Positions 1,283 through 7,469 of a DNA stretch of 7,469 bases are shown here, in pieces (the stretch's first letter is position 1; each line of letters opens with the position of its first letter). This DNA is from a virus (lineage: Duplodnaviria; Heunggongvirae; Uroviricota; Caudoviricetes), in IMG/VR virus record IMGVR_UViG_2534681934_000021, positions 1 to 7,469 of that record, one strand, 5' to 3'. The notes below the pieces were generated by a model. It searched no databases. It saw nothing but the letters and a program-made list of their open reading frames with translations, and had not been told where the DNA came from. A program made the position numbers and the translations under genes.

Positions 1283-2158
1283 TTATATAGATTTATTTTT
1301 TGCAGGGTTGTGTGGCTTGGGAGGTGATCGAGAGATCAGAATTGCGTTGTTTAGTGAGTTGCACCTATTAATTTTAAAATAAATACAATTGCCTTTTTTT
1401 CGATCTTCCCACCAGTCAGGTGCCGGGTCTGGCTCAACATGTAAAGCATCGGCAAGTCCTGATATCAAGCTGTATGACTGAACTCCATCAATGTGCTCTG
1501 ACAGTGATGGGGTAACATTCTGTCTTAGTGGATCAAGAATAAAATCAATACCTTTAATTCTGGCGTGTTTGGCGGCAGGCACAAAGTCTGAGTCCCCAGC
1601 AACAAGGACAATTACATCAACAAGTTTTTCATAAGCTAAAGTCGTGATATCCATCCCTAGCTTGATATCAACTTGTTTTTGTTTGATGTCATAGTAAAAA
1701 TCATCATTTGTCAGTTCATCCCATTTTTTCGTTCCTTTCATCAGAGCATCAAGGGAGAATGTAGTTAGTTGCCATCGCTTATTATCAACAAGATTCCCTA
1801 ATCTTAAGGCTGTTTTTCGAGTTTTTCTTAACTCTTCATGCAGCTCCGTTCTCAGAATATATGATTTTTCGAGTTTGAAATTCTTGCGACCAGGCGTCTT
1901 ATTGCCAGGCTCAGGAAGTGGAAGGCGTGTTTGAATGTCGAGTGGTGGACAGTCATAGAAGTAAATTCTATAAAGCTCAAGCGGTTCCCTACGTTCTTGT
2001 GATTGACGTTTTCCATTAAGATGGGAAAGAACCATTGACCATATTACTTTCATTATGCATTGCGCAGTCAGTTCATGCTCGGCGAAGTGTTTACGATGCG
2101 TAGCATGAACACGCTGCATGAAAAAACCCGCATCAATTAAAATTGCTGCTTTCTTCAT
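1283..2158 (-). CDS. NYN/LabA-like (PIN-fold) nuclease-domain protein, 291 aa; a cargo gene occupying the rexA-rexB position; candidate exclusion/defence gene
   Basis: The N-terminal MKKAAILIDAGFF and C-terminal VLVAGDSDFVPAAKHARIKG motifs are typical of NYN/LabA domains, along with an internal acidic motif (VDIKLGMDI). The start ATG is at 2158. The gene lies between the cI stop (2286) and the point where lambda-like sequence resumes (~1400). The last ~38 codons read through lambda-like DNA. Confidence 0.7.
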   Translation of the reverse strand: MKKAAILIDAGFFMQRVHATHRKHFAEHELTAQCIMKVIWSMVLSHLNGKRQSQERREPLELYRIYFYDCPPLDIQTRLPLPEPGNKTPGRKNFKLEKSYILRTELHEELRKTRKTALRLGNLVDNKRWQLTTFSLDALMKGTKKWDELTNDDFYYDIKQKQVDIKLGMDITTLAYEKLVDVIVLVAGDSDFVPAAKHARIKGIDFILDPLRQNVTPSLSEHIDGVQSYSLISGLADALHVEPDPAPDWWEDRKKGNCIYFKINRCNSLNNAILISRSPPKPHNPAKNKSI

Positions 2159-3742: not shown

Positions 3743-4664
3743 ATGACAAATACAGCAAAAATACTCAACTTCGGCAGAGGTAACTTTGCCGGACAGGAGC
3801 GTAATGTGGCAGATCTCGATGATGGTTACGCCAGACTATCAAATATGCTGCTTGAGGCTTATTCGGGCGCAGATCTGACCAAGCGACAGTTTAAAGTGCT
3901 GCTTGCCATTCTGCGTAAAACCTATGGGTGGAATAAACCAATGGACAGAATCACCGATTCTCAACTTAGCGAGATTACAAAGTTACCTGTCAAACGGTGC
4001 AATGAAGCCAAGTTAGAACTCGTCAGAATGAATATTATCAAGCAGCAAGGCGGCATGTTTGGACCAAATAAAAACATCTCAGAATGGTGTATCCCTCAAA
4101 ACGAGGGAAAATCCCCTAAAACGAGGGATAAAACATCCCTCAAATTGGGGGATTGCTATCCCTCAAATTGGGGGATTGCTATCCCTCAAAACAGGGGGAC
4201 ACAAAAGACACTATTACAAAAGAAAAAGAAAAGATTATTCGTCCGAGAATTCTGGCGAATCCTCTGACCAGCCAGAAAACGATCTTTCTGTGGTTAAACC
4301 GGATGCTGCAATTCAGAGCGGCAGCAAGTGGGGAACAGCAGAAGACCTGACCGCCGCAGAGTGGATGTTTGACATGGTGAAGACCATCGCGCCATCAGCC
4401 AGAAAACCGAATTTTGCTGGGTGGGCTAACGATATCCGCCTGATGCGTGAACGTGACGGACGTAACCACCGCGATATGTGTGTGCTTTTCCGCTGGGCCT
4501 GCCAGGACAACTTCTGGTCCGGTAACGTGCTGAGTCCGGCCAAACTCCGCGACAAGTGGACCCAGCTCGAAATCAACCGTAACAAGCAACAGGCAGGCGT
4601 GACAGCCAGCAAACCAAAACTCGACCTGACAAACACTGACTGGATTTACGGGGTGGATTTATGA
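3743..4664 (+). pseudogene. O: Replication initiator O, disrupted by a 23-bp tandem duplication inside the ori iterons and by a 1-bp shorter A-run
   Basis: The N-terminal 174-aa ORF (3743-4267) matches lambda O up to the iterons. An intermediate frame (4153-4350) matches ...LKLGDCYPSKQGDTKDTITKEK. The C-terminal portion (KRKDYSSENSG... to GVDL) is in a third frame, ending at 4664. Confidence 0.85.
4092..4198 (+). repeat. ori-lambda iterons, five copies where lambda has four (iteron 3 tandemly duplicated), followed by an AT-rich region
   Basis: tccctcaaaacgaggga (4092-4108), tcccctaaaacgaggga (4112-4128), tccctcaaattggggga (4135-4151 and again at 4158-4174), tccctcaaaacaggggga (4181-4198). 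The duplicated 23-bp unit is 4135-4157 and 4158-4180. Confidence 0.8.
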
Positions 4665-4972
4665 AAAACATCGCCGCACAGATGGTTAACTTTGACCGTG
4701 AGCAGATGCGTCGGATCGCCAACATCGATAACCAGGACATGACGATATCGGTCTGGGTCTTTCCTGATACTGATATTTCAGATGTATCGCGTGAGTTAAT
4801 TGCGGCAATTAAACAGGGGTATCTAACAGTAAAAGCCGCCGGGGTATGGGCGGGGGGCATTGAAACACCTTCGGTGGAAACTCCATCGGAAGGCTCTAAA
4901 TTTTTTGGTTTTGATATGGATAACGAATTCATCAGTGGTTTTGATGTAGGGGCATGGGGAGTATTACTCTGA
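4661..4972 (+). pseudogene. P: P' remnant: the first ~21 codons of replication protein P fused in frame to the C-terminal ~80 codons of an unidentified tail/baseplate-module gene (deletion junction near 4725)
   Basis: MKNIAAQMVNFDREQMRRIAN matches the lambda P N-terminus, then diverges (IDNQDMTISVWVFPDTD...). The ATG overlaps the O stop, and the ORF's own stop overlaps the downstream stf start (TGATG at 4970-4974). Confidence 0.7.
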
Positions 4973-5766
4973 TGGCGAAAAATGACTTTAAAGCGTTTGC
5001 AACTGATCGAAATGCCAATGTTATGTCGCAGGAGGAATGGGAAGCGTTGCCTGCGCTTATATCCGGATTTACAGCAGGGAAAGCATCCAGTGCGCAAGTC
5101 AATAAGGTTATTCGGCAGGCCAGCTTTATTGCTGCAGCTCTGGCCCAGTTTGTAAGTGATAAAACGCAACGGGATGTGCTTGATAATGGTGATCTGCCCG
5201 GTTTTGTTGAATTGCTGGGATCGGGGTTTGCTGTTGAATACCTGAGCCGCAAGAATCCGTTTGGCGATATCAAATCGGACGGCACGGTGAAAACGGCTCT
5301 TCAAAACCTTGGTTTGGGAGAAGGTGCTCCAGCTATTGGCGTTCCGTTCTTCTGGCCGTCCGCTGCAATGCCAAATACTGTAATCGACAGCTGGTCCTGT
5401 ATGGTGTTTTTGAAGTTCAACGGCGCGAAATTCTCTGCCACTGATTATCCTGTGCTGGCGAAAGTGTTTCCTTCGCTGGTATTACCTGAAGCCCGCGGTG
5501 ATTTCATTCGTATCTGGGATGACGGGCGAGGTGCAGACGGTGGTCGCGAATTATTAAGCTGGCAGGCAGCTACAAACTTTTCTCAGTTTGCCGGGAATAT
5601 AGGCGAAGGTGCGGGACACGCAATTAACTTTCATGATGGCATCGCCGGAAATCAGCCAGGATTTTCACGATTTAATTTCACCAGTAACTCTGTGGGTGAT
5701 GGTGTGAATTTTGTTGCAGTCAGACCGCGAAATATTGCATTTAACTTTCTGGTGAGGGCTAAATAA
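4954..5766 (+). CDS. stf: Short side tail fibre protein with a receptor-binding-type C-terminus; the likely true start is ATG 4972 (MAKNDF...)
   Basis: C-terminal motifs [12 protein letters not shown]...[20 protein letters not shown]...[19 protein letters not shown]...[11 protein letters not shown] resemble the lambda Stf and P2 H / Mu S C-termini (GAPIPWP...NIAFNYIVRLA). It is followed directly by tfa. Confidence 0.75.
5297..5322. other. Candidate DNA-invertase (Pin/Gin/Cin/Hin family) crossover site inside stf
   Basis: The 26-bp sequence CTCTTCAAAACC-TT-GGTTTGGGAGAA has imperfect 12-bp inverted half-sites around a 2-bp core. It fits the AAACC-NN-GGTTT pattern of hix/gix/cix/pix sites and lies at the boundary between the constant and variable parts of the fibre. 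Confidence 0.5.
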
Positions 5767-6359
5767 TGAAACCTGTTTTTGATGAAAATGGGCTGGCTAC
5801 AGTGCCGGGCGATATGCGTTGTTTTTATTATGATGCTGAAACATCTGAGTATACGGGCTGGTCTGATGAATATATTAATACTGGCGTAAGTATGCCCGCC
5901 TGTTCCACTGGTATTGACCCTGGCGAAAACATTCCGGGAAGAGTGGCAGTATTTACAGGTAAGGGATGGAGCCATGAAGAAGACCATCGCAATGAGACTG
6001 TTTACTCAATCGAAAATGGCGCAGCTGTTACAGTGGATTATATCGGTGCCATCAAAGACGGTTATGTCACGATTTCACCGTTAACGCCATACGATAAATG
6101 GGATGGTGAGAAATGGGTGACAGACACTGAGGCACAACACAGTGCCGCAGTAGACGCGGCAGAAGCACAGCGCCAATCACTGATTGATGCAGCAATGGCT
6201 TCCATTAGTCTGATTCAGCTGAAGTTACAGGCCGGACGGAAACTGACTCAGGCAGAAACAACCCGACTTAACGCCGTGCTGGATTACATTGACGCGGTGA
6301 CGGCAACAGATACCAGCACCGCGCCGGATGTCATCTGGCCTGAACTGCCGGAGGCGTAG
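5766..6359 (+). CDS. tfa: Tail fibre assembly protein (chaperone), 197 aa
   Basis: The ATG overlaps the stf stop (TAATG). The C-terminus ...LNAVLDYIDAVTATDTSTAPDVIWPELPEA is typical of the lambda Tfa / Mu U family (VDTSTAPDIEWP). Confidence 0.8.
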   Translation: MKPVFDENGLATVPGDMRCFYYDAETSEYTGWSDEYINTGVSMPACSTGIDPGENIPGRVAVFTGKGWSHEEDHRNETVYSIENGAAVTVDYIGAIKDGYVTISPLTPYDKWDGEKWVTDTEAQHSAAVDAAEAQRQSLIDAAMASISLIQLKLQAGRKLTQAETTRLNAVLDYIDAVTATDTSTAPDVIWPELPEA

Positions 6360-6783
6360 GCCATTCAATATCTGGCGCACCGGAAGTATCGACCAGCTCC
6401 AGTGCGTCCAGATAATCCAGCCACAAATTATATTGCGTCAGTTCGTCACCTTTCAGACGACCAATAGCCGCTTTACCGGGCCATTGCTTACTGTTCATGT
6501 ATTCGTTGGCCTGGTTAATTAGTAGCTGTCTTTCTGATTCAGTAATTTCAATAAGCTCTTCATGCGTGGGTGGAGGAATATCTGCCCACGCAGGCAGCCC
6601 ATCATCTCCGGCAATACGGATTTTTCCTTGTGGCGGTTCAGCCATAAACTCACTGATAATATTTTGATTTACTTCCTTAGCGTCTGATAAATCCCATCCC
6701 TCTGATTTATATTTATCAATCATATCCACAGGGAAAAAAGCATTATGCCTTGCGCTATAAACATATTCGTCCATATAAATCAC
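6331..6783 (-). CDS. tfa: Second tail fibre assembly protein in inverted orientation (U'-like), orphaned from its fibre gene; the likely start is ATG at 6774
   Basis: The C-terminus ...NLWLDYLDALELVDTSGAPDIEWPTPPAVQAR is Tfa-family. It converges on the plus-strand tfa with a ~29-bp 3' overlap, the classic invertible-segment arrangement. Confidence 0.75.
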   Translation of the reverse strand: MIYMDEYVYSARHNAFFPVDMIDKYKSEGWDLSDAKEVNQNIISEFMAEPPQGKIRIAGDDGLPAWADIPPPTHEELIEITESERQLLINQANEYMNSKQWPGKAAIGRLKGDELTQYNLWLDYLDALELVDTSGAPDIEWPTPPAVQAR

Positions 6784-6891
6784 CCTGAATAAAATTACTC
6801 ACCAACAGCCCACCAACTGTAATTCATCGATACCGTGTGAACCGCCCCGGGTTTCCTGGAGACTAAACTCCCTGAGAAAGAGGTAAACAGG

Positions 6892-7218
6892 ATGACTAAA
6901 AATACTCGTTTTTCCCCCGAAGTCCGTCAGCGGGCGATTCGTATGGTTCTGGAAAGTCAGGATGAATATGACTCACAGTGGGCGGCAATTTGTTCCATTG
7001 CCCCAAAGATTGGCTGTACGCCGGAGACTCTGCGTGTCTGGGTTCGCCAGCATGAGCGGGATACCGGGGGCGGTGATGGTGGGCTCACCAGCGCTGAACG
7101 TCAGCGTCTGAAAGAGCTGGAACGTGAAAATCGTGAACTGCGCCGCAGTAACGATATCCTTCGCCAGGCTTCCGCTTATTTTGCGAAGGCGGAGTTCGAC
7201 CGCCTCTGGAAAAAATGA
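6892..7218 (+). CDS. IS3-family transposase OrfA (helix-turn-helix / leucine-zipper part)
   Basis: [22 protein letters not shown]...[36 protein letters not shown]. It ends at an A6 run followed by TGA (7210-7218). Confidence 0.85.
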
Positions 7219-7469
7219 TGCCACTGCTGGATAAGCTGCGTGAGCAGTACGGGGTCGGACCGGTATGCAGCGAACTGCATATTGCCCCGTCAACGTATTA
7301 CCATTGTCAGCAACAGCGACATCATCCGGATAAACGCAGTGCCCGTGCGCAGCACGACGACTGGCTGAAGAGAGAGATACAGCGCGTATACGATGAAAAT
7401 CATCAGGTGTACGGTGTGCGTAAAGTCTGGCGTCAGTTGTTACGGGAAGGAATCAGGGTGGCCAGATGT
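7215..7469 (+). CDS. IS3-family transposase OrfB, N-terminal part (partial; -1 frame relative to orfA, 3' end beyond the window)
   Basis: The -1 frame is open from 7215 to the window end: [85 protein letters not shown], typical of IS3 OrfB before the DDE domain. Confidence 0.75.

Follow-up and report, generated by a model that had tools for sequence, protein, structure and literature searches.

Does the DNA downstream of the lambdoid genes at this locus hold an invertible tail-fibre switch, and if so has an insertion sequence (IS) locked it? The preliminary description of the locus favoured a switch frozen by loss of its partner site. Here we consider the window, that is, the whole stretch of 7,469 nucleotides, together with its relatives in Escherichia coli O157:H7. 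It is virtually certain that the region holds a Pin-invertible tail-fibre segment, that of prophage Sp1, of which the left two-thirds are present, and that this segment is closely homologous to the P segment of e14.

The fibre module in a decayed Sp1 prophage

The locus beside tRNA-Thr (thrW) and proA in O157:H7 genomes is 99.8-99.9% identical to the whole window, and the Sakai annotation of this locus reads 'prophage Sp1, lambda-like phage' (300,042-310,627). Judged by its sequence, the window is prophage Sp1 at the thrW site of E. coli O157:H7, in a decayed state. Gene losses were assessed against strain DX6, in which this site is occupied by an intact lambdoid prophage. Relative to this reference, Sp1 retains an N-terminally truncated integrase, an N-like fragment, an NYN-domain gene, cI, cro and cII, while the replication genes are reduced to a frameshifted O and 21 codons of P. 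The window-specific NYN protein is 291 amino acids long and led only to a 9.9-kb draft contig and a 4.2-kb Logan contig. Colinearity with the DX6 prophage ends at 4724, and at about this position the lambdoid DNA abuts the 3' part of a structural gene, after which comes the fibre module. Comparison with DX6 revealed no further virion gene in Sp1 besides this structural-gene remnant and the fibre module. The features from the joint to the end of the window are as follows.

4661 to 4972, plus strand: deletion joint upstream of the fibre module; about 21 codons of a lambda-type replication protein P lead into what remains, at the C-terminal end, of a structural (baseplate-like) gene.
4972 to 5766, plus strand: stf, tail-fibre gene of 264 amino acids in the currently expressed configuration (PHROGs; e14 comparison; annotated tail fiber protein, ECs0280).
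5297 to 5322, no strand: 26-bp Pin-type crossover site, CTCTTCAAAACC-TT-GGTTTGGGAGAA (e14 comparison, inversion breakpoints, published repeat).
5766 to 6359, plus strand: tfa, TfaE-like tail-fibre assembly chaperone for StfV (Caudo_TAP, E = 2.3e-27; phrog_105; 65.5% identity to e14 TfaE).
6331 to 6774 or 6783, minus strand: tfa', TfaP-like chaperone of the alternative tip (Caudo_TAP, E = 2.9e-30; 53.6% identity to e14 TfaP; annotated yfdK / ECs0282).
6795 to 6836 or 6837, minus strand: what is left of the 3' end of stf'V (gp53-like C-terminal domain): 13 codons and the stop, translating to TVSMNYSWWAVGE*.
6838 to 7469, plus strand: left 632 bp of IS629/IS1203 (IS3 family; 1310 bp when complete), 100% identical to the IS1203 annotated in strain 155 and with an HTH_Tnp_1 domain.

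The product of the deletion joint matches phrog_36642 over residues 1-21 and phrog_587, a structural protein family, over residues 18-96. It also yields a weak match to DUF2612, and in the Sakai annotation it appears as a P pseudogene. The stop codon of this reading frame overlaps the start of stf (TGATG), and it is at this overlapping ATG, position 4972, that gene callers begin stf, rather than at the 4954 previously given as the start of the region.

The Stf protein is divided between two sets of families: residues 1-119 match phrog_11303 and phrog_1396, both constant-part families, and residues 103-264 match the tail-collar families phrog_3100 and phrog_523. A Pfam search of Stf, unlike the PHROG search, returned no match. 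At the DNA level the constant part, StfC, runs to about 5308, and the variable tip of tail-collar type, StfV, extends from about 5311. Two tips are represented, each with its own chaperone: StfV with Tfa and, on the other strand, the remnant of the gp53-like tip with Tfa'. The two chaperone genes, both located where the preliminary description had placed them, converge with an overlap of 29 bp. The C-terminus of the alternative fibre had been described as absent. Most of the tip is indeed missing from the window, but the last 13 codons and the stop are kept on the minus strand: the 43 nucleotides separating tfa' from the IS encode a peptide identical to the end of a 136-residue protein in strain 155 and Sakai.

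The crossover site and natural inversion at the locus

The AAACC-TT-GGTTT core of the crossover site occupies 5304-5315, with the central dinucleotide at 5309-5310, and the site as a whole is built of two imperfect inverted 12-bp half-sites around the 2-bp core. It falls at residue 119 or thereabouts of the 264-residue Stf, where the PHROG families split and hence, as first suggested, at the boundary of the constant and variable parts. With one mismatch allowed, 0.33 matches to the core motif are expected by chance, and at least one match was found in 51 of 200 shuffled sequences. The core motif is consequently not significant alone, and the reality of the site rests on comparison. The corresponding site in e14 stfP shares 24 of its 26 bases, and positions 5309-5324 coincide with the inverted repeat published for e14, TTGGTTTGGGAGAAGG, where inversion of its P segment has been demonstrated (PMC12529663). 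Together with natural inversion breakpoints that lie within the site (below), the sequence comparison identifies 5297-5322 as a genuine serine-invertase crossover site, in agreement with the 26-bp invertase-type site originally proposed.

The remainder of the system is seen in IS-free relatives. In strain 155 and Sakai the order is stf, tfa, tfa' (minus strand), stf'V (minus strand), an inverted site TTCTCCCAAACC-AA-CGTTTATGAAAA and pinE, with the minus-strand gene for the 136-residue gp53-like tip lying past the point at which the window's IS starts. The second site, on the pin side, shows no difference from that of e14 and is directly followed by the gene for PinE, a protein of 184 amino acids with PF00239 and PF02796 (Resolvase and HTH_7) that is 96.7% identical to K-12 PinE. 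The spacing is constant among all the IS-free relatives: past the point of IS insertion, the centre of the second site comes after 329 bp and the start of pinE after 397 bp. Within the 7,469 nucleotides of the window our scan found neither a second site nor an invertase gene, just as the preliminary description had reported.

Inversion has occurred naturally at this locus. Ten versions of the O157 locus were obtained from gene-context look-ups, four in the orientation of the window and six flipped. The former encode the 264-residue StfC-StfV, with the 136-residue tip next to pin; the latter encode an in-frame StfC-Stf'V of 236 residues, with a 164-residue tip next to pin. In the six flipped loci colinearity breaks off at window position 5323 and positions 5300-6838 reappear inverted, while the outer half-sites stay in place. 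A count of StfC junctions among 5,426 complete genomes gave 155 for StfC-StfV and 87 for StfC-Stf'V; the two pin-side junctions were found 278 and 243 times in complete genomes.

The serine invertase PinE would cut at the central TT of the stf site and at the inverted partner site by pinE, flipping the segment of about 1.85 kb between them. StfC would then be joined either to StfV with Tfa, the state of the window, or to Stf'V with Tfa'. The likeness to the Mu G, P1 C and e14 P segments drawn in the preliminary description is borne out in that StfC lies outside the segment, the tip-chaperone cassettes are opposed and both orientations occur in O157.

The IS629 insertion and the state of the switch

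The element at the right-hand end of the window begins with the left terminal inverted repeat TGAACCGCCCCGGG..., followed by orfA (6892-7218; HTH_Tnp_1, E = 2.4e-12) and the start of orfB, and it is 100% identical to annotated IS629/IS1203 copies. Its first base, 6838, lies 55 bp past the GTG start of tfa', matching the distance of about 55 bp noted before, and some 12-13 codons before the stop of stf'V. The insertion costs the alternative tip its last 12 residues, among them a terminal motif also conserved in the tip of e14 StfP, and 1.3 kb now lies between stf'V and its chaperone gene tfa'. The evidence thus supports damage to the alternative fibre on two counts, the end of the tip being lost and the tip gene being split from tfa'. 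An exact pattern for the tfa'/IS junction had no match in viral_contigs, metagenome_contigs or genome_contigs. Context look-ups with tfa' and stf gave 20 places, none having the arrangement of the window. As a separate observation, the locus carries several independent IS629 insertions, IS-linked deletions and excision scars with microhomology.

For what follows the IS in the window's own genome we infer from relatives. There, the second site, of sequence TTCTCCCAAACCAACGTTTATGAAAA, belongs with the remaining stf'V and pinE beyond the IS point, so that in the window's genome the site and pinE would fall about 1.0 kb past 7469, outside the window. The partner site and the invertase gene have most likely been cut off by the edge of the window, not lost, and the earlier view that loss of the partner site locked the switch is not upheld. 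We consider it likely that a Sp1 Pin switch has here received a simple IS629 insertion in stf'V, with the partner site and pinE still present and the segment invertible but the alternative fibre crippled. In outline, a copy of IS629/IS1203 would have inserted into stf'V 12 codons before its end, and some 0.7-1.6 kb beyond the end of the window one would come upon the rest of the IS, the remaining stf'V of about 370 nucleotides, the second site and pinE. The segment, now of about 3.2 kb, could still flip, and its alternative state would present a truncated tip, of 124 or 224 amino acids, with the IS standing between it and its chaperone. The preliminary description had set against its own reading a functional switch, with site, invertase and an intact alternative C-terminus beyond the IS: the first two are probably there, but the C-terminus is not intact.

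Proteins of just this kind are on record. The protein predicted for a simple IS insertion was looked up by exact sequence, and NCBI assemblies were found to encode both a pin-proximal truncated tip of 124 amino acids, MPFARYF...TSSTSDT (EES9714853.1 and others, including ELN9845092.1, EOS3999143.1 and HAZ1643740.1, on contigs of up to 38.9 kb), and a 224-residue form fused to StfC, MAKNDF...TSSTSDT (EOL5695254.1 and EOQ8323641.1, on contigs of up to 31.7 kb). Both end exactly at the insertion point of the window and both are of the O157 allele. Since these proteins retain the pin-proximal part, the portion of the tip gene missing from the window still exists in IS-bearing genomes; and since they occur in both configurations, the IS-bearing segment has flipped, inversion having continued after insertion. 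The two proteins require a 4-bp target duplication (CGTG) for their TGA stop, whereas the clean IS629 copies of the neighbourhood (n = 7) show duplications of 3 bp. The read-through versions predicted for a 3-bp duplication were absent from the protein collection on exact look-up. The truncated proteins are tied to the lineage of the window solely by exact allele identity and the shared end point. It is on account of this discrepancy in duplication length, of the link by allele alone and of the flanking deletions made by IS629 that we rate continued inversion as likely rather than assured, and a locked segment as unlikely rather than dismissed.

A locked segment would mean that the IS marks the end point of a deletion in which the remaining stf'V has gone along with the partner site, and perhaps pinE, leaving the segment frozen as StfC-StfV and tfa' an orphan. 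This unlikely reading accords with the lack of a second site and invertase in the window and with the flanking deletions in O157 ascribed to IS629 in a published account (PMC9943667), as it does with the many IS629-linked deletions at the locus. In addition, a composite query for the IS right end joined to stf'V in one piece had no match among 5,426 complete genomes, and in the three strains that matched in two pieces (107, 109 and 110) the IS is in tfa. A new IS3-family insertion is by its nature simple, however, and the left flank in the window is intact to the base, while tips with the pin-proximal part, ending at the insertion point, occur in both configurations.

Nine complete genomes bear on the same question from both sides, for their tfa'/IS junction is identical to that of the window base for base and yet they have lost one site and are truly locked. 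In 644-PT8 and 319, the two of the nine that were examined, the order is int...CAATTGGTTA, IS, tfa', tfa, StfV, a single hybrid site and pinE: the segment is flipped and about 5.5 kb, from cI through StfC and including the stf-side site and the rest of stf'V, has gone. The site lost after the flip is therefore the stf-side one, which is not the state of the window, and the presence of the same tfa'/IS junction in the flipped orientation requires that inversion took place after insertion. At this very position on the int side, another O157 genome carries IS629 as a clean insertion bounded by a TTA duplication. The simplest history of the nine genomes would start from an ancestor in which the copy at 6838 was a simple insertion and lay inverted to a second IS629 at 1391, a pair that a Pin flip would have converted to direct copies; homologous IS-IS recombination would then have deleted the DNA between them. 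Two other routes were rejected. Recombination between inverted IS copies alone would leave the int-side IS junction unchanged, and a de novo IS-adjacent deletion is at odds with the window, which has the same junction yet keeps the deleted DNA.

It is highly improbable that the window is instead an assembly chimera, in which a true left part of Sp1 has been joined through the repeated tfa'/IS to a foreign junction. No complete RefSeq genome contains the whole window, the best coverage being 95%, and O157 genomes carry both tfa' and IS629 in multiple copies. The window-specific junction at 1391 is found on two short contigs only, the 9.9-kb draft contig, which stops at about 6353, before tfa' ends, and a 4.2-kb Logan contig; an exact pattern scan of viral_contigs for this junction gave no match. 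Against a chimera, the DNA to the left of the IS is the stf'V remnant unique to Sp1, which runs on into tfa' and tfa at 100% identity, and complementary truncated gene products exist, which means that in some strains an IS does occupy this exact position with the remainder of Sp1 present. Finally, that 5297-5322 is a palindrome-like sequence arising by chance in a fibre gene, with no recombination there, has a vanishing probability and is refuted, since even though a one-mismatch core is expected 0.33 times in a sequence of this size, natural O157 inversion breakpoints land exactly in the motif, all but two bases are shared with an experimentally inverted e14 site, and relatives carry the partner site and pinE alongside.

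Significance and comparison with known systems

The system is already known, belonging to the Gin/Hin/Cin/Pin family of fibre switches with the e14 P segment as its nearest relative, and there is nothing new in kind: the Sakai annotation already names pinE and the fibre genes. The IS629 insertion is likewise ordinary, one of many IS polymorphisms at the locus. As one more such polymorphism in Sp1 it matters little beyond O157 strain typing, although it offers an example in which a site-specific flip may re-orient an IS, after which recombination with a second copy may delete several kilobases and finally lock the switch. With every other virion gene of Sp1 gone, the switch has ceased to serve phage host range. 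In e14, a chimeric gp53-like protein encoded proximal to pin, StfE2, arises through inversion and keeps phage T2 from adsorbing (PMC12529663). The Sp1 counterpart of StfE2 in the orientation of the window (MPFARYF... plus the gp53-like tip) is the very gene struck by IS629. By analogy, O157 might keep the Sp1 switch for the benefit of the host, with the IS allele changing phage susceptibility and Pin flips gating IS-IS deletions through conversion of inverted to direct copies, but we think this decidedly doubtful. Were the cryptic switch to have an e14-like anti-phage role, such IS alleles would be relevant to the phage susceptibility of O157.

Among the individual systems, the closest is the e14 P segment of K-12 (stfP-tfaP / tfaE-stfE, pinE), which has the same gene order, the same invertase, the same partner site and a stf-side site differing at two positions. 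The protein comparison with e14, which the preliminary description had recommended, agrees: besides the chaperone identities listed above, the 28 residues of StfC before the site are 93% identical to StfP and the tip is 41% identical to StfE. Both are defective prophages found in both orientations among sequenced genomes. They differ in that Sp1 is a lambda-like remnant at thrW while e14 lies at icd, and the N-terminal 90 or so residues of Sp1 StfC are unrelated to e14 StfP. In the state of the window the tail-collar tip is on the StfC side, unlike e14, and the Sp1 gp53-like tip is marginally similar to that of StfP (25% over 67 amino acids, E = 0.057). The segment measures 1851 bp in Sp1 against 1797 bp in e14, pinE is followed by a GIY-YIG gene in the former and by mcrA in the latter, and the window's allele, unlike e14, has IS629 in its alternative tip gene.

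In the G segment of Mu and the C segment of P1 the serine invertases Gin and Cin act on 26-bp sites with a 2-bp core, the crossover lying inside the fibre gene at the boundary of its constant and variable parts and two tip-plus-chaperone cassettes lying in opposite orientation. The window shows this arrangement of the fibre gene and the cassettes. The switches of Mu and P1 serve live, virion-making phages, whereas Sp1 is without every other tail and head gene.

Lastly, the IS is the same as that of the IS629/IS1203 prophage polymorphisms of O157 and their IEE-promoted excision, as covered in PMC9943667, and the window's copy is 100% identical. Unlike those other IS629 polymorphisms, that of the window sits inside an invertible segment, so that a Pin flip would change the orientation of the IS relative to a second copy.

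IS629 in the Sp1 remnant

The prophage remnant Sp1 is an IS629 hot spot, with at least six distinct insertion positions within its 10 kb among the loci compared. The entries in the loci of relatives (L-numbers) are as follows.

IS629 entries in the Sp1 locus
L001 16393
L015 4244
L012-L014 ~4790
L010 13560
L005 9731
L024 ~1100
L003 8256

At the int-side 1391 site, IS629 is found in either orientation, 3 bp apart and with differing flanking deletions, and strain 107 bears an excision scar there. Comparison with the intact prophage of strain DX6 shows that 156 bp are missing from the window at 1389-1391, where the joint has a 3-bp TTG microhomology. Since the deletion begins 4 bp away from the IS629 position of other O157 genomes (CAATTGGTTA/IS/TTATGTG in L015), this joint, too, looks like the scar of an IS excision. 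An ORF present on just two public contigs is a product of the deletion.

1283-2158, minus strand: NYN-domain ORF, 291 amino acids

Of draft genomes, only GCA_002464985.1 has the 1391 junction in the form seen in the window; it also carries IS629 in phoE (L006 9852-9944), a possible lineage marker for the source strain of the window.

Orientation of the tail-fibre segment

Several 'partial' tip proteins of draft assemblies (proteins P0007 and P0009) start precisely at GLGEAAK, the crossover site, and these contig breaks suggest that both orientations of the segment coexisted in the sequenced cultures. The tfa'/IS junction of the window is common to nine complete O157 genomes. Both of those examined, 644-PT8 and 319, carry the segment in the flipped orientation and lack cI through StfC. 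They retain only one crossover site, a hybrid (TTTTCATAAACG-TT-GGTTTGGGAGAA) that adjoins the invertase gene pinE.

L002 11000-13853: flipped, deleted locus with the window's tfa'/IS junction
L003, same coordinates: likewise

Two IS629 copies that lay in inverted orientation seem to have been made direct by a Pin flip and to have recombined with one another afterwards.

Loss of the late region

Replication gene O (window 3743-4664) is broken by a frameshift into two ORFs.

3743-4267: O fragment
4059-4664: O fragment

P is reduced to its first 21 codons (4661-4724), which run in frame into the last part of a structural gene; the deletion of the whole late region thus stopped immediately upstream of stf, retaining the native stf start.

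Comparison with e14

Where tfa and tfa' converge, their 3' parts share an inverted repeat encoding the common chaperone motif LDYIDA / LDYLDA.

6278-6295 and 6404-6421: 18-nt inverted repeat, 83% complementary

Over their last 80 residues, Tfa of the window and TfaE of e14 are identical, which suggests that fibre cassettes exchange modules. Just past pinE, outside the window, lies a further gene.

L001 23746-24519: LEM-3-like GIY-YIG nuclease gene

In e14 its place is occupied by mcrA; in both prophages a nuclease gene adjoins the invertase at the prophage end.
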